From Chlamydiia bacterium (GTDB lineage: Bacteria > Chlamydiota > Chlamydiia > Chlamydiales > Parachlamydiaceae), in NCBI GenBank assembly GCA_038257035.1, contig JBBSJT010000030.1, positions 1 to 21,054 on the forward strand: DNA of 21,054 bases. Reading direction: 5' to 3'. The number at the start of each line of letters is the position of its first letter. Positions within the stretch are counted from its first letter, which is position 1. Below the pieces are notes generated by a model that saw nothing but the letters and a program-made list of their open reading frames with translations, searched no databases and was not told where the DNA came from. This document shows, one piece after another, positions 692 through 20,940 of the stretch. Position numbers and translations under genes: made by a program.

Positions 692-848
692 GCTAATTTG
701 GAGTGCGGTGACTCGTCGCCGCTCTTTACTCAAATCGACTCGTCGATTTGCCTTTATTTTTGAATTTTTTGTAAAAATACAAAAATAAAGGGCCCGACAA
801 GTCGGGCTTAGGGCAAAGCGGCGACAAGTCACCGCACTCCAAATTAGC
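692..848. repeat. REP/REPIN-like palindromic element, copy A
   Basis: 32-bp inverted arms GCTAATTTGGAGTGCGGTGACTCGTCGCCGCT (692-723) and AGCGGCGACAAGTCACCGCACTCCAAATTAGC (817-848), 1 mismatch. Internal hairpins at ~731-750 and ~792-807. Central 12-bp inverted repeat CCTTTATTTTTG (751-762) / CAAAAATAAAGG (780-791). Confidence 0.9.
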
Positions 849-5279: not shown

Positions 5280-5414
5280 ACCTGAAACTCCTTGAAATTT
5301 AATGATCAACCGGACCACGTCAGCAAGATAGAATTTACAGGACTATACCAGGTTTTCCAACTGTGCTACTTGAAAGTGAAAAAAATTAACCTCTACAATT
5401 TATAACATCTTAAA

Positions 5415-5463
5415 TTTTTTACAGGATATTCAGCGTTAGCGATCATGAATATTCTGTAAAAAA
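5415..5463. terminator. Stem-loop with T/A tracts, possible intrinsic terminator
   Basis: TTTTTTACAGGATATTCA (5415-5432) / TGAATATTCTGTAAAAAA (5446-5463): 18-bp stem, 1 mismatch, 13-nt loop, ~120 nt downstream of the 5584 stop. The stem is AT-rich for a terminator. Confidence 0.5.
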
Positions 5464-5583
5464 TAAGAAAAGATATAATCATTTCCGGTCAGGATTTTTA
5501 ATTTCCGGTGGCACCAGTATATTATCCGCAAATCTTATCTTGACAATGTGCCATTTTCCCAGATTAAAACATAAAATTACAAG

Positions 5584-7230
5584 TTATTTTAATGATATAT
5601 CGTATTTGCACTCATAATCTTCTATTTGAAGCGCCCCATCAGCATCGAATTTCAAACTGTAGTTAAAATAGATGATAATGGGATCCTTTATAACAATTTT
5701 ATTTTGGCCTATATTAAGTTCATTAATAACGTTTTTTTCGCTTATCTGAACTCCCCCCTTAATTTTAACATTTACTTTTTCAATATTTCCTAAAGTATCG
5801 TGAATCACTTCGACTTTAATTTTTGCATGATCTGTCGTTTCCCATCGAAACTCATGTACCCCATCACTCCAAGTATAAAGATATCCGGGTTGGAAGTGAA
5901 AACTCATCGCGGCTTCTCCAAACACACCCAAACTCATTTGAGTGACAGCCATTTGGATTATTGGTATGAACCTTTGATTATGTGCATTATCTGGTAGACA
6001 AAGCTCTCTTACCGCATTAGCCGCAAATTTTAATCTTTCATCAAGATTATTGTAATCATGTGGAACAGGCAATTCATCTATAATTTTATTGTAAGAATCC
6101 TCTCTTTCAAATTCCATTGTCCTTAAATAATCTTTTTTAAATTGAGGAATGACTTTCAAATCGGAACCATCAGAAATTTTATTAAATTCTTCAATAGCAG
6201 AATTAAAAATTTTTAAAGTTAAATCCTGACTATTAGGTAAGTTTTGCAAAAAATTATGAATGACTTCAAATCGATAACTTTCAAGAAATTGATTTAAAAG
6301 CTCATGTTTCTCTTCATCAAGAAAATTACGAGCCGTCTGTTCCGTCATTCCTACTGAAAACTGATAATCTGGGTAATTTATTAAATTTTTTAATTTCTGA
6401 CCTGTTTCATTGGTCTCAACAAAAGATTTAAACAATAATTTATTTAATAAATCCTTTATTTTCAAAGCATCATCATCTGAAACTTCCCAAGTTTCAGGTT
6501 TAATATCATCAAAAGTATCAAAAGCTTTCATATCGCCTTTAAAGCTTTGCTTAATCATATTTTTTAAATTTTGATCCTTGTCTTGTTGGAGTATGGATTT
6601 TAATTTAATGAAGGTTTTGACGCTGATTTCGTTTTTAAGTAGCAATTGTAAATTTCCAACAATCTCTTCTGCCTCTTTTACATTTATTTCTTCAGTTTTC
6701 CCAATTTTTTCAAGTATTGTTTTTGGAATGTAATAATAAGCAACCCCCAAGTCTTTACTTGGTTCTATGTCTTTACCGTTATATTTCATTGAAAAGTTCT
6801 CTTGCAATTTATGAATATCGGTCATTGCCTGATTAATAATTTTTAGAGTGGAGTTATCTAAGGTTTTGAATGATCGAACTTTTTCCAAACCATTATATGC
6901 CATTTCCAATTCTTTAATGGTTTCTTTTAATTTGTACTCACCGGGATGTGAATCAGTAAATTCTATTTTTAGTTGAGTGATTGTTTTATTCAATAGGGAA
7001 GGAAGACTATTAAGTCCGGGTTGCTGCCAGCTCAACCAGTTCTGCCATTCTTCTTTGCTTGTCCAACTTTCAAAATGAGACTTTGCTTGAGCTTTGACTT
7101 TTACTTCAAGATTGTTATCAAAAATAATAAGCTGCGGCAGTCCCTCTTGATCTTCTTCAAATTGACGCATCATTGCAAGCTTGTGCAAAACTTCATGTGA
7201 GGGCAAGATATTTACATTAGACGGTTCCAT
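5584..7230 (-). CDS. Large hypothetical protein (orphan, candidate secreted effector)
   Basis: Long AT-rich ORF. ATG 7230 (MEPSNV) is preceded by AAGGAG. No motif recognised. Confidence 0.8.
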   Translation of the reverse strand: MEPSNVNILPSHEVLHKLAMMRQFEEDQEGLPQLIIFDNNLEVKVKAQAKSHFESWTSKEEWQNWLSWQQPGLNSLPSLLNKTITQLKIEFTDSHPGEYKLKETIKELEMAYNGLEKVRSFKTLDNSTLKIINQAMTDIHKLQENFSMKYNGKDIEPSKDLGVAYYYIPKTILEKIGKTEEINVKEAEEIVGNLQLLLKNEISVKTFIKLKSILQQDKDQNLKNMIKQSFKGDMKAFDTFDDIKPETWEVSDDDALKIKDLLNKLLFKSFVETNETGQKLKNLINYPDYQFSVGMTEQTARNFLDEEKHELLNQFLESYRFEVIHNFLQNLPNSQDLTLKIFNSAIEEFNKISDGSDLKVIPQFKKDYLRTMEFEREDSYNKIIDELPVPHDYNNLDERLKFAANAVRELCLPDNAHNQRFIPIIQMAVTQMSLGVFGEAAMSFHFQPGYLYTWSDGVHEFRWETTDHAKIKVEVIHDTLGNIEKVNVKIKGGVQISEKNVINELNIGQNKIVIKDPIIIYFNYSLKFDADGALQIEDYECKYDISLK

Positions 7231-9086: not shown

Positions 9087-9540
9087 TTTTTAACACAGAG
9101 ACCACTGAGGAGCAAGAGAGAGGGGCAAAAAGTTTCAATCACAATTTTTTCATTTTTTGCATCGTTGGGAGGGACTTTTTTACCGCGAAGGACGCGAAGA
9201 AGCGCAAGCTACGCTGCGGGAGAAACGCGAAGAAGCGCGCTTTCGCGCGAAGAAGAAGACTGTCCATACATAATAGATGTTAATGTTTGTATTAAATTTT
9301 TTTTGACAAAAAAATTTACAACTCATCCTCTTTGCAAGTGCAAAGAGGAATAATTAAATACTCGCCGATAGTTCAAAAATCTTGATTCTTTTTCCTTCTT
9401 CGCGCGAAAGCGCGCTTCTTCGCGTTTCTTCCCGCAGCGAAGCTTGCGCTTCTTCGCGGTCTTCGCGGTAAAAATTGGAAAAGAAACCGGGTATTTTTTA
9501 TTACCTCTTTGTTACTCTCTTGTTCCTCTCTGTGGTGAAA
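9087..9540. repeat. Degenerate outer inverted-repeat element (CACAGAG type)
   Basis: Left TTTTAACACAGAGACCACTGAGGAGCAAGAGAG (~9088-9120). Reverse complement of the right arm (~9515-9540) is TTTCACCACAGAGAGGAACAAGAGAG. Confidence 0.6.
9177..9474. repeat. GC-rich long inverted-repeat element (CGCGAAG units), MITE-like
   Basis: ~80-bp arms at 9177-9256 and 9395-9474 differ by 3 substitutions and 1 indel. Each arm has four CGCGAAG units. The AT-rich spacer has internal hairpins. Confidence 0.92.
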
Positions 9541-9543
9541 TAG

Positions 9544-10383
9544 CTAGAGGAGGTTCAGGGTGGGTGCCATGACGATGTTGTTAAAGCGGTAATAATCAAA
9601 GGTGACACAAATTCCCAATTTTGAAAAACCCACAATTACCTGTTTATTACCGAATACCATGCTATTGAGGCTCTCTTGACATCTTGTATAAAATTCGTAA
9701 AAGATTTTTTCTTGTGATAAAAAAAATTTAACTGAGATACAGATAATAGCCTCTAATGCAGTAGGGATGCTGTATCGATCAATGATTTCACGATTAAGCT
9801 CATTTACCATTTCACATTGTTGAGAAAAGGTTTTGCCACCACTTTCCGGAATTGGTTTATTTACCATCAATACCCAACTGCCTTGTTTAGTGAGCACCTT
9901 GCCATACTCATCAGGTATCTTTGGATAGAGAAATTGATAACCTTGATCAAGCTTATTGAATTTATGTTTTAAAAACTTACCATATTTTTCAATGCTTAAA
10001 TTTTCAGGAACCCAAAAAAGCAAATGGGTATCACATACTTTTTCACCAGCGAATATTTTGCAATTACTTTTATAAAGATCTACAATTGTATTAGGTAATT
10101 TTTCAAATGCAAAAGGGCCATCATTTGCCCCAAAAGAATCATTTCCAAAATGATCGCACCAGTCATCCGGATTAAATGCATTTTTGTAGATCACTCTTTT
10201 TAAGAAAAAAGGGTCTGTCGATATTTTATTACAATTTTTATCGATTAATGAAATTGTGCTTAAAATTTCAGTAAAGTCCAGATTAGTAAAAATTTCTTTA
10301 AGAATATCGTCGTAATGATTAACTTTAAATAATTGATCTAAAACTAAAATAGGCTCAACGATTGCATCATAGGATCTTATCAT
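9544..10383 (-). CDS. F-box-like domain protein (chlamydial effector-type family)
   Basis: N-terminal DDILKEIFTNLDFTEILSTISLIDKNCNKISTDPFFLK fits an F-box pattern. The downstream segments (AFNPDDW..HFG, THLLFWVPE, SWVLM, YTRCQE) resemble, from recollection only, F-box proteins expanded in environmental chlamydiae. Confidence 0.7.
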   Translation of the reverse strand: MIRSYDAIVEPILVLDQLFKVNHYDDILKEIFTNLDFTEILSTISLIDKNCNKISTDPFFLKRVIYKNAFNPDDWCDHFGNDSFGANDGPFAFEKLPNTIVDLYKSNCKIFAGEKVCDTHLLFWVPENLSIEKYGKFLKHKFNKLDQGYQFLYPKIPDEYGKVLTKQGSWVLMVNKPIPESGGKTFSQQCEMVNELNREIIDRYSIPTALEAIICISVKFFLSQEKIFYEFYTRCQESLNSMVFGNKQVIVGFSKLGICVTFDYYRFNNIVMAPTLNLL

Positions 10384-10386
10384 TAA

Positions 10387-11274
10387 TCAAACTCCAAATT
10401 CATTCTCTAGTTTTAGGATACGATTTTGTTGACTTTGCTTGCAAGGTATCAATTGTCCTAATGATTTAATATAATCAATTGCCGATTCAAGTTCATCTAT
10501 TCCAATCAAATGAATCACATTGCACTTTTGCGACTCTCGTTGAAAAATTTCTTTTATGGTTTCAATATTGATTTCATTCGCTATGACAATCGCCAAATCT
10601 TTGTTTGTAAAATAAAGTTTTTCCAAGACAATCGTTAAATTTTTATATTCTTTTTTTAATGCTGAAATATAATCTTGCTCTTTATTTGCCTTAATACTGG
10701 AGGCATCAGGATAACGTCCTGTAAACCATAATCCGGCCATAGCATTGAGAAATCCTATTAAGGCACTTGCACCCGTAATTAGCCCGATTTGAACCCCTTT
10801 AGTTGCAATATCATTCACAGCAGTTGTATTAGTCCCATTTTGAGCATGCACATTGGAATTGAAAATTGTGATGTAATTAAAATAATTAATGCCCCCTGTA
10901 GCGCCGGCAAGTATTCCAAAAGCAATTATGGCTTTATACCCTAACCAATCCTGGGTTTTTTCATTAGCGAGAGAGCTTTCTTCAAATAGCTGATAACCAC
11001 TTTTGGTAATTGGATATTGTTCGTTTTTTACCAATGTTAAAAATATGAGCCTTAAAAGATCTTCCTCAGGTGGCATCCATTTATCGATGTTGCGTATTTG
11101 CATGCGTTGAGTTTTACCAGGAAGAAAATTTTGATTGAGCAACTCTTCGATTTTATCTTTTAATTCAGGAAAAGCTTGGATTGCAAGCGGAATTGCTAAA
11201 CCTTGCTTTGCTTCCATTTGAATGACTTCTTCACTTGTTGGCAAAGAATGATTTGAACTTATATTGATATTCAT
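10387..11274 (-). CDS. Hypothetical membrane protein with two hydrophobic segments (Inc-like candidate)
   Basis: GGAGG Shine-Dalgarno before ATG 11274. Hydrophobic stretches AIIAFGILAGATGGINYF and IGLITGASALIGFLNAMAGLWF, followed by a charged helical region. Stop lies 3 nt before the F-box gene start. Confidence 0.7.
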   Translation of the reverse strand: MNINISSNHSLPTSEEVIQMEAKQGLAIPLAIQAFPELKDKIEELLNQNFLPGKTQRMQIRNIDKWMPPEEDLLRLIFLTLVKNEQYPITKSGYQLFEESSLANEKTQDWLGYKAIIAFGILAGATGGINYFNYITIFNSNVHAQNGTNTTAVNDIATKGVQIGLITGASALIGFLNAMAGLWFTGRYPDASSIKANKEQDYISALKKEYKNLTIVLEKLYFTNKDLAIVIANEINIETIKEIFQRESQKCNVIHLIGIDELESAIDYIKSLGQLIPCKQSQQNRILKLENEFGV

Positions 11275-11419
11275 AATTACAGCCTCCCTGCCGTCTTTCT
11301 CACTAGCTAAATAACCTAAAATTTTTTACTTTCAAGGGTCACCAATATTTACACATTACTTCAATCTAAAAATTCATCATTAATTATTCTCTAAGTCATC
11401 TATACCGTAAAGAATGATC

Positions 11420-11519
11420 TTTTTAACGCAAAGGCGCAAAGGTGCAAAGATTAAATATCCTTTCTCTAGTTCAAAAAGTTATTTTTACCCTTTGCGCCTT
11501 TGCGCCTTTGCGTTAAAAA
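11420..11519. repeat. Tandem-unit inverted-repeat element (CGCAAAGG x3)
   Basis: TTTTTAACGCAAAGGCGCAAAGGTGCAAAG (11420-11449) / CTTTGCGCCTTTGCGCCTTTGCGTTAAAAA (11490-11519), 1 mismatch, 40-bp spacer. Confidence 0.92.
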
Positions 11520-11581
11520 AATGTAAAAATAACGGTTATATTTTCACTTTTCCGTTAGTAGCAGTATACTAGAGCAGTTTT

Positions 11582-12139
11582 TTAAATGGATTTCTTTTTT
11601 AAAAGGCCAAGAGTAAATACGCACTTAAGAAATTCGCCCGGTACAAAAGGAATAAAGCCAGCCATTAGAGCATGATTTAAGCCGATAAAACTGCTTAACC
11701 ATAACATACCTAAGAACAATTGTAATCCAGAAATCATCACAAGGGATATTAACATTGTCCCATAGGAAATAGCTTTTGAGGAAGCTTTTTCAAAAAGAAG
11801 GCCGCTTAGATAACACTGAATAATAAAACCAAAAAGATAGCCCCCTCGCACACCCACAATGGCAAGCGGCGATGATGCTGCATTTGCAAGTACCGGCAGA
11901 CCGATCATTGTTTCTATAAGGTAGGCTACAACAGCCAATGTACCTTTAACACTACCAAGAGTAAGGGCTAAAACCATTACAGCAAACGTTTGCATTGTTA
12001 AAGGAACAGGAGTTAAAGGAATTGTAATTTGGGATGCTAAACTTAAAAAAAGTGCTCCTCCTAAAATTTGAGTCAAATCTTTTGCAAGCTTAAATGTTTG
12101 GCTTGAAATTTGATTTTGAACGAGTGGATAACTTTGCAT
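11582..12139 (-). CDS. bioY: Biotin transporter BioY
   Basis: SQITIPLTPVPLTMQTFAV, GLPVLA, GGYLFGF and GFIPFVPGEFLK motifs. Start ATG 12139 follows GAGG. Confidence 0.93.
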   Translation of the reverse strand: MQSYPLVQNQISSQTFKLAKDLTQILGGALFLSLASQITIPLTPVPLTMQTFAVMVLALTLGSVKGTLAVVAYLIETMIGLPVLANAASSPLAIVGVRGGYLFGFIIQCYLSGLLFEKASSKAISYGTMLISLVMISGLQLFLGMLWLSSFIGLNHALMAGFIPFVPGEFLKCVFTLGLLKKKSI

Positions 12140-12164
12140 AAATACCTCTTTAAAAAGATGATGA

Positions 12165-12590
12165 TTACTTAATTTCAGATAGAATGTCAATAATTTGTTT
12201 ACATAGCAACTTGCCTTGTGAAAAGGTTACTAAATCGCAAGCCTCTTCAAGACTTACCCATTTAGCTTCTAGAATCTCGTCCTCTTGCACTTTCAAAACA
12301 CCTGTCACAAGAGCTATAAAATAAAAAACGGTTTTATCGATGGGTGTTCCATGATTAAAAAAACTATAGCGCTCAACAATTGGTTCATCAACAAGCAGTT
12401 TTGTTACAACAAGACCAGTCTCCTCTTGCAATTCCCTTTTTGCAGCTTGCAATGGGGTTTCATTAACTTCCTTATGCCCTTTTGGAAATGACCAATATTT
12501 TGCGTTCTGATGAACAAGTAAAATAGACCATTGCAGGTCTATTTTTTTTAATGGAATCACCCCATAAGAGAAATCTTGAAAGCTATTCAT
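12165..12590 (-). CDS. Nudix hydrolase (Ap4A hydrolase-like)
   Basis: Nudix box FPKGHKEVNETPLQAAKRELQEETG, with SYGVIP near the N-terminus. Confidence 0.92.
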   Translation of the reverse strand: MNSFQDFSYGVIPLKKIDLQWSILLVHQNAKYWSFPKGHKEVNETPLQAAKRELQEETGLVVTKLLVDEPIVERYSFFNHGTPIDKTVFYFIALVTGVLKVQEDEILEAKWVSLEEACDLVTFSQGKLLCKQIIDILSEIK

Positions 12591-12595
12591 AAATC

Positions 12596-13828
12596 CTAAT
12601 TTTTAAAAGGAGCAAAAACAACCGTGGCATTGTGCCCGCCAAAACCAAATGAATTTGAAATGGCTACTTTGACATCAAGTTTTTCTTTTGTTGTAGGAAT
12701 ATGAAATCCAAGATCAGGTTCCGGATTTTCAAGATTTATTGTTGGATGAACTTCACCTTTAGCAATCGTCAACACTGTAACAACAGCTTCAAATCCACCT
12801 GCTGCACCAAGAGCATGGCCTAACATGGATTTTGATGAATTCATTGTGATTTTGGATGGGTCTTTAAAAACTTTTTTCATGGAACTAACTTCGATAAGAT
12901 CACCAACAGGTGTTGATGTTCCATGAGCATTCACATAATTGACATCTTCGGCAAGAACCCCGGCATCTTTTAAAGCGTTTTGAATACAAATGCTTTGTCC
13001 ATCAACACCGGGCTCTGTAATATGATGCGCATCACAAGAAATACCACCACCCAAGTATTCGGCAAGAATTGTGGCTCCACGAGCTGTTGCATGCTCAAGG
13101 GTTTCGAGCAACAATACACCGGCACCCTCGCCCATTAAAAAGCCATCGCGATCTTTGTCCCAAGGTCTTGAAGCACGTTTAGGCTCATAATTTCGCTGAG
13201 AGAGCGCTTTACAGGCAGAAAATCCGGCAACTCCCATTGGAATGATTGGGCTTTCAGTACCCCCGCAAAGCATTAAGTCCGCATCACCATTCCTTAAGTG
13301 ATTAGCAGCTGCAATAATAGAATTATTACCTGTTGCACAGGCTGTTGAAATAGAATAATTTGGGCCTTGAAATTTGATATCCATGGCAAGCATGGCACCC
13401 GGCATATTTGTCAAAATGTAGGGAACAAAAAACGGAGAAACACGTTTAACGCCTTTTTCAAGCAATGTTTCCACGCCCTCGCAAAACATGTTCATTCCGC
13501 CCATGCCAGAGCCAATGATTACTCCACAACGTGAAGGATCGAGATTTTCAAGTTTTACTTGACCTGATTCCAAAGCTTTTTTCCCTGCCACAACAGCATA
13601 GGAAATGGCTTTATCTACACGGCGACCATTTTTTTTGTCCATATATTCGCCCGGATCAAAATCATGAATAGGTGCTGCAATGCGCGTTGGGAAATCTTCA
13701 GTGTTAAAATGTGTGATTGTGCAAGCACCGCTTGTACCATCAAGTAATTTTTCAAAAAATTGGTCAGCTTCATTTCCAAAACAAGAAACTACGCCAACAC
13801 CTGTGACTACAATCCGCTTTTTTGCCAT
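12596..13828 (-). CDS. fabF: 3-oxoacyl-ACP synthase II
   Basis: RIVVTGVG, STACATG (catalytic Cys), NAHGTST, KSMLGHALGAAG and SNSFGFGGHNA motifs. Confidence 0.97.
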   Translation of the reverse strand: MAKKRIVVTGVGVVSCFGNEADQFFEKLLDGTSGACTITHFNTEDFPTRIAAPIHDFDPGEYMDKKNGRRVDKAISYAVVAGKKALESGQVKLENLDPSRCGVIIGSGMGGMNMFCEGVETLLEKGVKRVSPFFVPYILTNMPGAMLAMDIKFQGPNYSISTACATGNNSIIAAANHLRNGDADLMLCGGTESPIIPMGVAGFSACKALSQRNYEPKRASRPWDKDRDGFLMGEGAGVLLLETLEHATARGATILAEYLGGGISCDAHHITEPGVDGQSICIQNALKDAGVLAEDVNYVNAHGTSTPVGDLIEVSSMKKVFKDPSKITMNSSKSMLGHALGAAGGFEAVVTVLTIAKGEVHPTINLENPEPDLGFHIPTTKEKLDVKVAISNSFGFGGHNATVVFAPFKN

Positions 13829-13836
13829 ACCTTTTC

Positions 13837-14190
13837 CTATTTTTGTTCAGTCAAAATATCCAAATCTACAATTTTTGCTTCTTTCCAAAGAAATTCAATC
13901 CCATATTTTTCACGAAGGTCAGGGGTCAACAGATGAACGATTACATCACCGGCATCGATGACAAGCCAATCTCCGACTTTGTCACCTTCAGTATGCCAAG
14001 GGGGATTATTCATTTCGCGTAATGTTTGAGAGACTGCAGACCCAATCGCCTTAACATGTCTATCAATATTGCCTTCAGCCACAATCATGTAATCTGTTAA
14101 GGAAGATAATCCTCTTACATCAAGGGCGATAATATTAAAACCTTTTTTATCAAAAATAGTTTGCGCAATTGCATTTAGGATTTTTTTCAC
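13837..14190 (-). CDS. rsfS: Ribosome silencing factor RsfS (Iojap/YbeB)
   Basis: DKKGFNIIALDV, DYMIVAEG..RHVKAI and WLVIDAGDVIVHLL...REKYGIEFLW motifs; adjacent to nadD as is common. Confidence 0.93.
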   Translation of the reverse strand: MKKILNAIAQTIFDKKGFNIIALDVRGLSSLTDYMIVAEGNIDRHVKAIGSAVSQTLREMNNPPWHTEGDKVGDWLVIDAGDVIVHLLTPDLREKYGIEFLWKEAKIVDLDILTEQK

Positions 14191-14247
14191 AATATTCTTC
14201 TTATTTAACTTTAGTTAACTTAAGCTCTTTCTAATTTTTTAGAAATC

Positions 14248-14853
14248 TTAAGGGGATAATGAATTAGAGTATAACTGATTCTCATATATGTAGTCTACTA
14301 CTTTTGATGGAACAAGGTGTCGGATATACTCACCTTGGCGAATGCGCTGCCTGATTTTGGTACTGCTGATATCCAAAATAGATGTTTTGGTAAGATTTTT
14401 TTTAAAGAAATTCAAGTTATTAGTAAAGTTTTTCTCCCCTTGATCATTTTCTCTATAGCCGATAAGTGGGGTTGCAAGGTTTAAAATCTCATCGGGATTT
14501 TTCCACTTTGGAAAATCAAGTGCAGAGTCCATTCCTAAAATTAAAAATAGCTGATCATCTTTAAATTTTAATTTTAACTCTTTTAATGTATCTACCGTAT
14601 AGGATATACCGCCCCTTTTTAATTCAAGATCAATGCATTTGAAATGAGGAATGTCTTCGATTGCAAGCTCTACCATTTTTAATCTTTGTGCAGAAGTTAC
14701 CGGGTTAAAATCACGTTCTTTATGGGGATTTACATTTGCAGGGCAAAAAAGAACGCTATCGAGACCATGAATTTCGGCCATCTCAAGCGCTAAATTAATA
14801 TGCCCAAAGTGAATCGGGTCAAATGACCCGCCGTAATAACCTATCTTCTTCAT
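14248..14853 (-). CDS. nadD: Nicotinate-nucleotide adenylyltransferase
   Basis: GGSFDPIHFGH, SYTVDTL, ILGMDS...W and ISSTKIR motifs. Confidence 0.95.
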   Translation of the reverse strand: MKKIGYYGGSFDPIHFGHINLALEMAEIHGLDSVLFCPANVNPHKERDFNPVTSAQRLKMVELAIEDIPHFKCIDLELKRGGISYTVDTLKELKLKFKDDQLFLILGMDSALDFPKWKNPDEILNLATPLIGYRENDQGEKNFTNNLNFFKKNLTKTSILDISSTKIRQRIRQGEYIRHLVPSKVVDYIYENQLYSNSLSP

Positions 14854-14912
14854 ATTTTAACGATTCCTTTGCTTTAAGGTTAGGGAAATAGCTCGTAATT
14901 GAAGGGATTTTT

Positions 14913-15073
14913 AAAGGACTAAAAGGACAAAAAGGACTTAAAGGACTAAAAGGACATCTATACCCTTTTTGATATAATTCTAAGCAAAACGTTTGCAATA
15001 AAACAACTATTAGATAGAATACAAAAGTTTATAAATTTGTCCTTTTTGTCCTTTTTGTCCTTTATGTCCCTTT
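14913..15073. repeat. Tandem-unit inverted-repeat element (9-bp AAAGGACWW units)
   Basis: Five AAAGGAC units at 9-bp period (14913-14956) face four TGTCCYTT units (15038-15073) across an ~80-bp AT-rich spacer. Confidence 0.88.
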
Positions 15074-15077
15074 TTTC

Positions 15078-15725
15078 CTAAAGGATTTCCCAGTTATTGG
15101 CTTTAGCGTGGCGTCTTAATTGTCGATCCGGGTTGACGGCAACCGCTTGGCCTGCAGCCTTTAAAAATGGTAAATCCAAAATACTATCTGAGTATGCTGT
15201 CGTACTTATCTTTACTAGATTAAATTGTTGAAGAAAAGCATTTAAATAGTTTGCTTTATCAGTCCCTTCAACAAAGCTTGAAATTTTTGAAAATTGCCCC
15301 TTTTCATCAACGTCATAAACGGTTGCTTTCCAAATTTTAACGCCAAGAGTTGAAGCAATAGGACCGACAAGAAAGTCCGGTGAATTTGATAAAATAGCAG
15401 TAAATTGACCCTTCGATTTGGCACCCTCAAGACGATCAATTGCAGGGGGGTAACTATATTTTTTTAAAAATTCAGGGATGAAGGATTCGATCAATAGATT
15501 TAAATGATTTGCATTTTTTTTAAAAAAGATGAGTTTAAAAACTAGCGTGTGAAGTTGCTGTAAATTAATAATGCGAAGTTTTTGCAAAAAATAAACGCCG
15601 ACAAGCTTTAACATTGTCGGCGTTTTAAAGTAGCCATGGCGATAAAGATACGCACCAAAATGATAACTGCAGTTAGCAGATAGAAGGGTATGGTCTAAAT
15701 CAAAAAGCGTGATTTTTTCAATCAT
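15078..15725 (-). CDS. HAD-superfamily subfamily IB hydrolase
   Basis: FDLDHTL (motif I), ILSNSP (II), K in GTDKA (III), AYSDSILDLPFL...AVAVNPD (IV). Confidence 0.92.
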   Translation of the reverse strand: MIEKITLFDLDHTLLSANCSYHFGAYLYRHGYFKTPTMLKLVGVYFLQKLRIINLQQLHTLVFKLIFFKKNANHLNLLIESFIPEFLKKYSYPPAIDRLEGAKSKGQFTAILSNSPDFLVGPIASTLGVKIWKATVYDVDEKGQFSKISSFVEGTDKANYLNAFLQQFNLVKISTTAYSDSILDLPFLKAAGQAVAVNPDRQLRRHAKANNWEIL

Positions 15726-20809: not shown

Positions 20810-20940
20810 TTTGGAGTGCGGAGACCTGGCTCCGCTTTGTTTTCAAATCGACCAGGCGATTTGCAAGCTCAATTTAAAAACGACATTGTCGATTTAGCAG
20901 ACCGCCAGGTCGGTCTGAAAACAAAGCGGAGCCAGGGCCT
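20810..20940. repeat. REP/REPIN-like palindromic element, copy B
   Basis: Starts TTTGGAGTGCGG like copy A. Perfect 21-bp arms CCTGGCTCCGCTTTGTTTTCA (20825-20845) / TGAAAACAAAGCGGAGCCAGG (20916-20936). Inner hairpins CAAATCGACCAGGCGATTTG and CAGACCGCCAGGTCGGTCTG. Confidence 0.88.

Follow-up and report, generated by a model that had tools for sequence, protein, structure and literature searches.

The Correia elements (CREE) of Neisseria are small non-coding MITEs (transposable elements of miniature size with inverted repeats) that have terminal inverted repeats, occur in many copies and are often co-transcribed with their neighbours, and in the foldback (FB) elements of Drosophila a variable centre is flanked by long inverted arms that are themselves made of short tandem repeats. 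The 23S rRNA intervening sequence (IVS) of Coxiella is presented, in the available text on it, as a selfish element of 428 nt with a 28-bp terminal stem and, in its loop, a small open reading frame (ORF) for an S23p four-helix protein, which is excised by RNase III and has, in the stem-proximal part, GACAGAT heptamers in tandem (three copies, a number that differs from strain to strain); the same text holds that the ‘functionality and origin ... remain unclear’ of such sequences (PMC4990558). Here we analyse four hairpin elements (elements 1–4) in a chlamydial genome, all within a stretch of 21,054 nucleotides (the window; contig JBBSJT010000030.1 of assembly GCA_038257035.1, Parachlamydiaceae), and we consider them probably to be gene-less, non-autonomous miniature copies of larger units that we call ‘hairpin cassettes’.

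A full-length cassette would consist of one small gene between inverted arms of three to five tandem units, each of 7–9 bp. Elements 1–3 would belong to a class with a gene for a GxxExxY protein (PF13366/TIGR04256), C-R-C-R-R-A-G units and ends reading ACC...GGT, and element 4, with the same design and other units, may be related to a sister class carrying PF05635 genes. An initial annotation of the window had already regarded the elements as empty, non-autonomous members of a mobile or cassette system; a gene-bearing form in the same genome, polymorphic sites and genome-wide enrichment now bear this out, with the enzyme that moves them identified only as a candidate.

The four elements of one design that the annotation had placed within 6 kb are all present, with arms that in elements 2–4 are 83–97% complementary, and they represent three sites, element 2 being nested in the loop of element 1. 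Matching outer ends, claimed for three of them, are confirmed by the terminus pattern TTTYAMCRCRRAG, whose six copies in the window form three inward-facing pairs (expected 0.04; none of 100 shuffled sequences reached six). Element 1 (9088–9540; none of the four elements is assigned to a strand) is an outer hairpin of purine-rich CACAGAG/CACTGAG-type units with the termini TTTTAACACAGAG (9088–9100, plus strand) and TTTCACCACAGAG (9528–9540, minus strand). Element 2 (9177–9474), a long-form member of the CGCGAAG family with about 80 nt per arm, has TTTTACCGCGAAG at both outer ends (9178–9190, plus; 9461–9473, minus), its arms pairing between 9177–9221 and 9430–9474 (93% complementary) and between 9218–9255 and 9395–9432 (97%), with small side palindromes (GCGCAAGCT..GCTGCG and GCGCGCTTTCGCGCG) within them. 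Element 3 (11417–11522) is a short hairpin of the CGCAAAG family with three 8-bp units per arm, a loop of about 22–40 nt, termini TTTTAACGCAAAG at 11421–11433 (plus) and 11506–11518 (minus), and 42-nt arms that are 88% complementary. Element 4 (14905–15079), of the AAAGGAC family, has four to five 9-bp units per arm (14915–14956 and 15038–15079, 83% complementary) and an 81-nt AT-rich loop, and it ends in a different terminus, GGGATTTTAAAGGAC. Tandem Repeats Finder reports the unit CGCAAAGG in 2.9 and 3.0 copies for element 3 and AAAGGACTA in 4.8 and 4.9 copies for element 4, and a further unit in the window, TCTTCGCGG, in 2.1 copies.

Each inverted arm of elements 1–3 holds at least three tandem units of the form C[AG][CG][AGT][AG][AG]G, read from outside to inside on the purine-rich strand, and A-[AC]-C stands directly before the first unit (ACCACRGAG...CTCYGTGGT); the units of element 4 do not have that form. 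The proposal that all four belong to one system goes too far in the case of the AAAGGAC element: its design is that of elements 1–3, its terminus and unit type are different, and its style suggests the four-helix-bundle class discussed below.

All four elements lie between protein-coding genes, and the genes around them are housekeeping ones (among them adenine deaminase, bioY, a NUDIX gene, fabF, rsfS, nadD and a haloacid dehalogenase (HAD) hydrolase); element 3 is situated between the 3′ end of bioY and the next gene, and element 4 between nadD and the HAD hydrolase gene, with its right end abutting the HAD stop codon. No ORF was found within any of the four, and no Rfam family matched anywhere in the window at gathering thresholds. 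As RNA, element 2 is predicted to fold with −180.5 kcal/mol (z −19.65 against shuffled sequences), element 3 gives z-scores of −10.8 and −13.5 on its two strands and element 4 one of −7.8, and element 1 deprived of the inner element 2 is still predicted to form a single hairpin (minimum free energy −46.3 kcal/mol, computed without a shuffle control). The loop of element 2 contains a conserved core (9296–9350, no strand assigned) of two hairpins, namely an A/T palindrome around TTGACA followed by CCTCTTTGCAAGTGCAAAGAGG. A promoter reading of this TTGACA was considered and rejected, as a manual count on the core copies of the genome gave no −10 hexamer at workable spacing. Outside the element, a weakly conserved module, CGTTGGGAGGGAC (9160–9176, plus strand), precedes the T-run of many CGCGAAG termini.

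The elements are abundant in the genome, an assembly of 2.37 Mb with 36% G+C in 210 contigs (contig C30 being the window). The terminus pattern occurs 193 and 199 times on the two strands, 392 in all, as against four and none for the same pattern read backwards, and TTTTACCGCGAAG is its commonest form (183 copies). With a broader terminus pattern, the ends paired like brackets define 186 elements, which occupy 33,741 bp or 1.4% of the genome and 10 of which are nested in another element, so that the enrichment of the consensus pair that the annotation had asked to see is evident. Of the 186, 168 have one and the same unit at their two ends, which upholds the claim that the unit variant is mirrored on both arms (CGCGAAG 85, CGCAAAG 32, CAGTGAG 30, CGCAGAG 15), and the AAAGGAC family, with its own terminus, adds 19 paired copies. 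These counts are floors, 26 of the 420 contig ends falling in the repeats. By bracket pairing the CGCGAAG family has 104 members, with a continuous spread of lengths from 128 to 320 bp, and the genome as a whole has 444 long inverted repeats, a number that includes unrelated REP-like families (REP, repetitive extragenic palindrome). One further tandem-unit family of the genome has CAGGAT units and the terminus TTTTTTACAGGATATGCA..., with the T-run-AC start in common; a palindrome in the window with 33-nt arms and TTTTTTACAGGATAT (5400–5478) resembles a minimal member of it.

By context, 160 elements could be classified, 82 lying in co-directional, 54 in convergent and 24 in divergent gaps, and a further six lie within ORFs of a crude call set. 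Of all 1603 gaps 226 are convergent, compared with 54 of the 160 elements, and gene 3′ ends are thus favoured. The spacers were described as AT-rich, non-coding and variable; they do lack ORFs and vary in length, but they are not unrelated to one another, since 72 of 99 loops in the CGCGAAG family match loops at other loci (73–93% identity). The best match of the element 2 loop, 84% over 118 nt, is at C79:7944–8227, and a strict pattern finds the two-hairpin core in eight genome copies (the window copy at about 9296–9350 being one), all within CGCGAAG elements. Loops as well as arms are common to copies at unlinked loci; the elements thus stem from the copying of whole elements, deletion variants included, and did not form as hairpins in place. 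The two arms of an element have a median similarity of 0.87, compared with 0.77 for arms of different elements, and in 8 of 89 cases an arm is most similar to its own partner; we considered arm-to-arm homogenization and set it aside, as these figures lend it little weight and subfamily structure accounts for the likeness. Outside the termini, an ACCGTT..GGG.. module of about 19 nt is often found before the T-run (in 197 termini the information content is raised at positions −19 to −1 and is at background beyond), which could represent either a former outer layer or surroundings in which elements preferably land.

Comparison with relatives indicates that the sites are polymorphic. The metagenome contig L071, whose nadD protein is 93% identical and whose DNA is colinear at 85–92% identity, has a spacer of 12 bp between the adenine deaminase gene and a convergent ORF at the site of elements 1 and 2 (485 bp in the window), a 206-bp spacer without element 3 downstream of bioY, and, between nadD and the HAD gene (reverse complement 5660–5880), a CACGAAG-unit hairpin in place of the AAAGGAC element. 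All three sites thus differ between the window and L071, which answers positively the earlier call to compare filled and empty sites. In G002, a genome of the same genus, nadD and the HAD gene almost touch and site 4 is empty. The nadD/HAD site has been occupied independently by two families; it may be a hot spot, or one element may have replaced another. In none of 40 relatives, two of them from the same genus, does the CGCGAAG terminus occur more than once (0–1 copies), and a degenerate terminus pattern gives 10 matches (control 7) and 26 matches (control 4) in the two same-genus genomes. Three further metagenome runs yielded contigs of a relative about 92.5% identical across 11581–14853, and since the repeats show raised depth in these runs the families are not private to this assembly; joints in the metagenome contigs (e.g. 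9254 to 9400) are other family copies without the core. Taken together, the elements are lineage-limited, differ between close relatives, are almost exclusively intergenic and are in excess at gene 3′ ends. Two adjacent ORFs of 279 and 295 aa next to element 1 (9544–11274, minus strand) have no Pfam or PADLOC match; they are present in L071 at 85% nucleotide identity, and a DNA search of two same-genus genomes found none.

We next consider the genes that such arms enclose. Of the 16 long-range pairs of matching termini in the genome, 15 come from two neighbouring elements with ordinary genes between them. The remaining pair, C7:926–1588, is the only single element that bears an ORF, with CGCGAAG arms around 135 residues that encode a GxxExxY protein (TIGR04256, 138 bits; PF13366), in agreement with the expectation that arm pairs would enclose a recurrent gene family. 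Between the gene-less copies and this cassette, similarity is confined to the arms (about 120 nt on the left, about 80 nt on the right). The second and only other GxxExxY gene, on C17, has a complete CGCAAAG element within a few bases downstream, so that the two resident genes appear to go with the two largest families (CGCGAAG and CGCAAAG), weakly so for C17. In the order, 41 of 120 genomes have a GxxExxY gene. Among 29 loci from 29 genomes, where at least three units on the proper strand were required within 200 nt on each side, such units are found in 17 of 27 downstream and 12 of 27 upstream flanks, compared with 1 of 26 and 0 of 23 distant control windows. Of 20 terminus-rich genomes (at least 15 matches) 17 have the gene, compared with 23 of the 99 that are terminus-poor (odds ratio 18.7, p 3e-7, with kin not independent), and the 17 carriers are spread over 13 families.

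The association extends far beyond the chlamydiae. The annotation had suggested that similar arms flank GxxExxY genes in other bacteria, and among 80 loci in planctomycete, acidobacterial, chloroflexal, bacteroidetal, verrucomicrobial, proteobacterial, cyanobacterial and actinobacterial records and one archaeal record, a count of three or more units on the proper strand is reached by 59 of the right and 54 of the left flanks (on the wrong strand by 13 and 12). The leading unit is CACAGAG at 32 loci, CACGGAG at 11 and CGCAGAG at 8, and in acidobacterial, cyanobacterial, Streptomycetaceae and archaeal examples the cassette ends read ACCACRGAG...CTCYGTGGT. The arm design and the unit motif are therefore physically linked to GxxExxY genes across phyla, and the terminus consensus noted in the window is a hallmark of GxxExxY cassettes in general. 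Since the heptamer is kept over protein branch lengths of 0.4–0.7 substitutions per site, there appears to be constraint on the heptamer sequence itself and not on pairing only.

The protein itself looks like a nuclease. In 23 aligned sequences the GxxExxY motif (G32, G34, E37 and Y40) and a PD...ExK triad (D76, E86 and K88) are invariant, and an AlphaFold model (pLDDT 92) has structural neighbours that are predominantly restriction-endonuclease-like PD-(D/E)xK nucleases, such as the BpuSI nuclease domain, Cas4 SSO0001 and Hjc (best VIA-align Z 7.8). The comparison points to no specific PD-(D/E)xK subfamily, Foldseek against the PDB gave no match at E ≤ 0.001, and neither a PDB relative by sequence nor a PADLOC match was found. 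Judged by this model, the GxxExxY protein is a minimal PD-(D/E)xK nuclease with its predicted catalytic residues (E37, D76, E86 and K88) intact. One survey, in its available part, gives the function of PF13366/TIGR04256 as ‘Unknown’ and reports multiple transfers (PMC3424549). Literature searches with GxxExxY, PDDEXK_3 and the family accessions returned passing mentions only in full texts, supplements excluded.

A sister class of cassettes carries four-helix-bundle genes (PF05635, ‘23S rRNA IVS protein’); within the order, 20 of 120 genomes have such a gene. In a strict test that required at least three contiguous copies of a 6–9-mer, mirrored on the other side of the gene, seven of 16 PF05635 loci had mirrored arrays, four had one-sided or unmatched arrays and five had none (control windows 0, 1 and 15, respectively), and several of the loci scored as ‘none’ show irregular arrays by eye. 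The suggestion that similar arms flank four-helix-bundle genes thus proved sound, with seven of 16 loci mirrored as against none of the 16 controls. Their units are diverse (GTTCGGA, CGGGCA, GGGCAA, AAGATY, CGTAAC, AAAGGCT, TCAATG). The only PF05635 gene of the genome (G000:C166:470–900), on a 3-kb contig, lies between short inverted stretches of AATTCCA units that fail the strict test, and this contig could stem from another organism (contamination estimate 0.73%). Curated descriptions of the GxxExxY and four-helix-bundle families presumably link both to rRNA intervening sequences.

We suggest that the elements would be moved in trans, most likely by a GxxExxY nuclease that would recognize either the arrays of units or a hairpin or cruciform formed by them. 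Going by the sequence associations described above, this nuclease is the leading candidate for the mobility enzyme, a proposal that we make tentatively and to which we attach less than even weight. Unit number would change by slippage; it is 3 in one and 5 in the other of otherwise identical copies in the genome G035. By analogy with the Coxiella 23S IVS, transcribed stems of 30–85 bp might be cut out by RNase III, and such removal would make insertions in operons and 3′ regions tolerable. We would go further only as speculation, and regard it as somewhat doubtful that GxxExxY proteins at large are the mobility nucleases of an undescribed, pan-prokaryotic class of hairpin cassettes with CACAGAG-type heptamers ending in ACC, that the gene-less copies are its MITE-like dependants and that rRNA IVSs are elements of the same kind in rDNA.

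Several observations weigh against the hairpin-cassette explanation as set out here. Four-helix-bundle cassettes have the same design without a nuclease, and GxxExxY is thus not required by the design. The conserved loop core of the gene-less copies has no counterpart in the C7 cassette, which leaves descent by internal deletion unsupported, and the arm-like stretch upstream of the C17 gene is degenerate and was missed by BLAST, which makes that association weak. Three of the 20 terminus-rich genomes have no GxxExxY gene. Unit type is unclustered on the protein tree (15 changes, where shuffling gives 15.6 on average and 79 of 200 shuffles are as low), a tree that is poorly resolved and on which some unit labels of ‘none’ arose from ORF-end calls; the exception is the CGCGAAG pair formed by the C7 protein and that of G047, a clade with support 100/100. 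Arms of the same element, as given above, exceed arms of different elements in similarity by a modest margin only (0.87 versus 0.77, with 8 of 89 best partners), and at the element ends the inverted repeat runs on into variable flanking bases. A target-site duplication was seen neither at the window sites, whose flanks are too diverged from those in L071 for exact junctions, nor at cassette ends in other phyla. The copies are 73–93% alike, and from such sequences current activity in this genome may at most be surmised. Finally, many GxxExxY copies in G132/G110 and G035/G092 ride in larger repeats that resemble insertion sequences (IS), and because they are passengers their copy number is uninformative on mobility of their own.

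The details of these passengers are as follows. In G132 (loci L043–L058) the GxxExxY gene, with one or both arms, lies near the right end of an IS-like repeat that is present in at least 16 near-identical copies and ends in ...ATGCAACAACGCC. The same arrangement recurs in G035 (L059–L067 and L070), with an IS-like repeat ending in ...TTCTGAACAGGCTCTTAG at 10 or more of the 12 loci inspected. In G035 there are also tandem arrays of GxxExxY cassettes or C-terminal fragments (C44:93816–94678, C30:90266–90758, C30:108913–109754 and C5:35468–36905), spaced at about 343–350 bp for fragments and about 540 bp for whole cassettes, so that they look like a cassette array.

These observations bear on the rival that survives best, in which the cassettes are mobile but the GxxExxY and four-helix-bundle proteins are only cargo, the arms being sites for an enzyme encoded elsewhere (in the host, or an unrecognized recombinase), as with attC sites of integrons. 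We rate it as unlikely, though as a serious contender. That two unrelated cargo families have the same design, that cassettes and fragments in G035 stand in tandem arrays with spacings of about 343–350 bp and about 540 bp, that cassettes occur as passengers in IS-like repeats and that three of the 20 terminus-rich genomes lack a GxxExxY gene all speak for it. Against this, GxxExxY genes keep the C-R-C-R-R-A-G unit and the ACC terminus across phyla whereas the four-helix cassettes use many unrelated units, and recognition by the linked protein fits such a pattern better than a single common enzyme would. Moreover, no candidate enzyme was seen, there being no ORF with more than two paralogues in the genome, where integrases were not specifically searched for.

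Ordinary MITEs, derived from an IS with a DDE transposase (for example of the IS630/Tc1 type, which duplicates TA) and with the termini as transposase-binding sites, seem improbable to us. Terminal inverted repeats, small size, high copy number, intergenic position and ends that read ...TA-CC...GG-TA... would fit such an origin, and the search for a partner speaks against it: the genome gave no match to DDE_3 (the IS630 type; other transposase families were not searched singly) and contains no multi-copy transposase ORF, none of its 1943 ORFs of at least 120 aa having more than two paralogues. The sole ORF-bearing single element among the 16 long-range pairs is the GxxExxY cassette, with no transposase, and no direct target duplication was seen, where no exact filled/empty pair is available for comparison. 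The one IS3-type IS that was found is an insertion with its own ends inside an AAAGGAC element: at G000:C4:32346–33818 a hairpin of that family is split in its loop by an IS with a 260-aa integrase-like ORF and a small upstream ORF.

Quite improbable, too, is the reading in which the elements are REPs, or REPINs made of them, moved by the REP-associated tyrosine transposases (RAYTs; Y1/HUH, IS200-like) of the genome. Y1_Tnp matches occur at about seven genome loci and the elements are high-copy intergenic hairpins; within 500-nt flanks, each of the seven loci has another palindrome family of its own, such as AATTTGGAGTGC... or ATAAAGCAGGCC...CCTAGGGC..., and none is bracketed by a tandem-unit arm pair, so the suggestion in the initial annotation that HUH genes might be enclosed by such arms did not hold (none of seven). 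The same arms accompany GxxExxY genes, and not Y1 genes, in the 80 loci of many phyla. A single CACAGAG-type terminus about 250 nt downstream of a broken Y1_Tnp gene on C7 is read as a neighbouring element. The AATTTGGAGTGC... family brackets a RAYT-like Y1_Tnp gene at G000:C68:12300–12539 and also supplies two REP-like nested palindromes of the window (692–848 and 20825–20936), which are not tandem-unit hairpins. Finally, that the elements are immobile hairpins of local origin with a structural or regulatory role (as RNase III sites, as terminators or as protein-binding arrays), growing in place by slippage, is hardly credible: unit number does change by slippage, convergent gaps are in excess (54 of 160 elements compared with 226 of 1603 gaps) and the predicted stems are very stable, but homology between unlinked loci extends over whole elements including their loops, close relatives differ at the sites, with different families at one site in two strains, and the stems are flanked by T-runs on the 5′ side and A-runs on the 3′ side, the reverse of an intrinsic terminator.

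Considering hairpin cassettes as the probable source of the elements, several consequences follow. PF13366/TIGR04256 is a large orphan family that is now tied to a DNA architecture kept across phyla and to bursts of gene-less copies, which offers a concrete and testable substrate, and rRNA intervening sequences are connected to these elements through an explanation that can be tested. A fair share of the intergenic repeat load of chlamydiae (1.4% of this genome, often inside operons) is accounted for, as is a limit on assembly, 26 of 420 contig ends breaking in the repeats. If GxxExxY proteins were mobility nucleases, they would represent a new transposon or homing class driven by a PD-(D/E)xK enzyme of 125 residues.

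Compared with the systems described so far, the elements are best placed among hairpin elements of the IVS type or MITE-like elements, and the GxxExxY link is, as far as literature searches show, not in print. The resemblance to FB elements is one of design only, for these belong to eukaryotes, are far larger, and have no relation to the present elements in sequence or, presumably, in enzyme. Correia elements are similarly small and non-coding, with terminal inverted repeats and many copies, and differ in that in the present case no TA or other target duplication was seen, no DDE partner was found, and lengths are continuous (128–320 bp in one family) because unit number and loops vary. REP/REPIN–RAYT systems are also abundant, intergenic, lineage-specific and non-autonomous hairpin repeats presumed to be moved in trans by a single-copy bracketed gene; here, however, the bracketed gene would encode a predicted PD-(D/E)xK nuclease instead of a Y1/HUH enzyme, and the arms are unit arrays of 30–85 nt instead of REPs of 20–40 nt. 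By analogy of design, the closest published relative is the Coxiella 23S rRNA IVS, which, so far as its available description goes, shares the hairpin design, with stem-forming terminal inverted repeats and tandem heptamers of variable number. The 23S gene, searched for an IVS, is absent from the present assembly. The Coxiella IVS lies in helix 45 of 23S rRNA, whereas the window elements are intergenic and occupy neither helix 25 nor helix 45, the insertion sites of IVSs; they are gene-less and occur in hundreds of copies, with C-R-C-R-R-A-G units and an ACC terminus, and their full-length relatives carry a gene for a GxxExxY nuclease in place of S23p.

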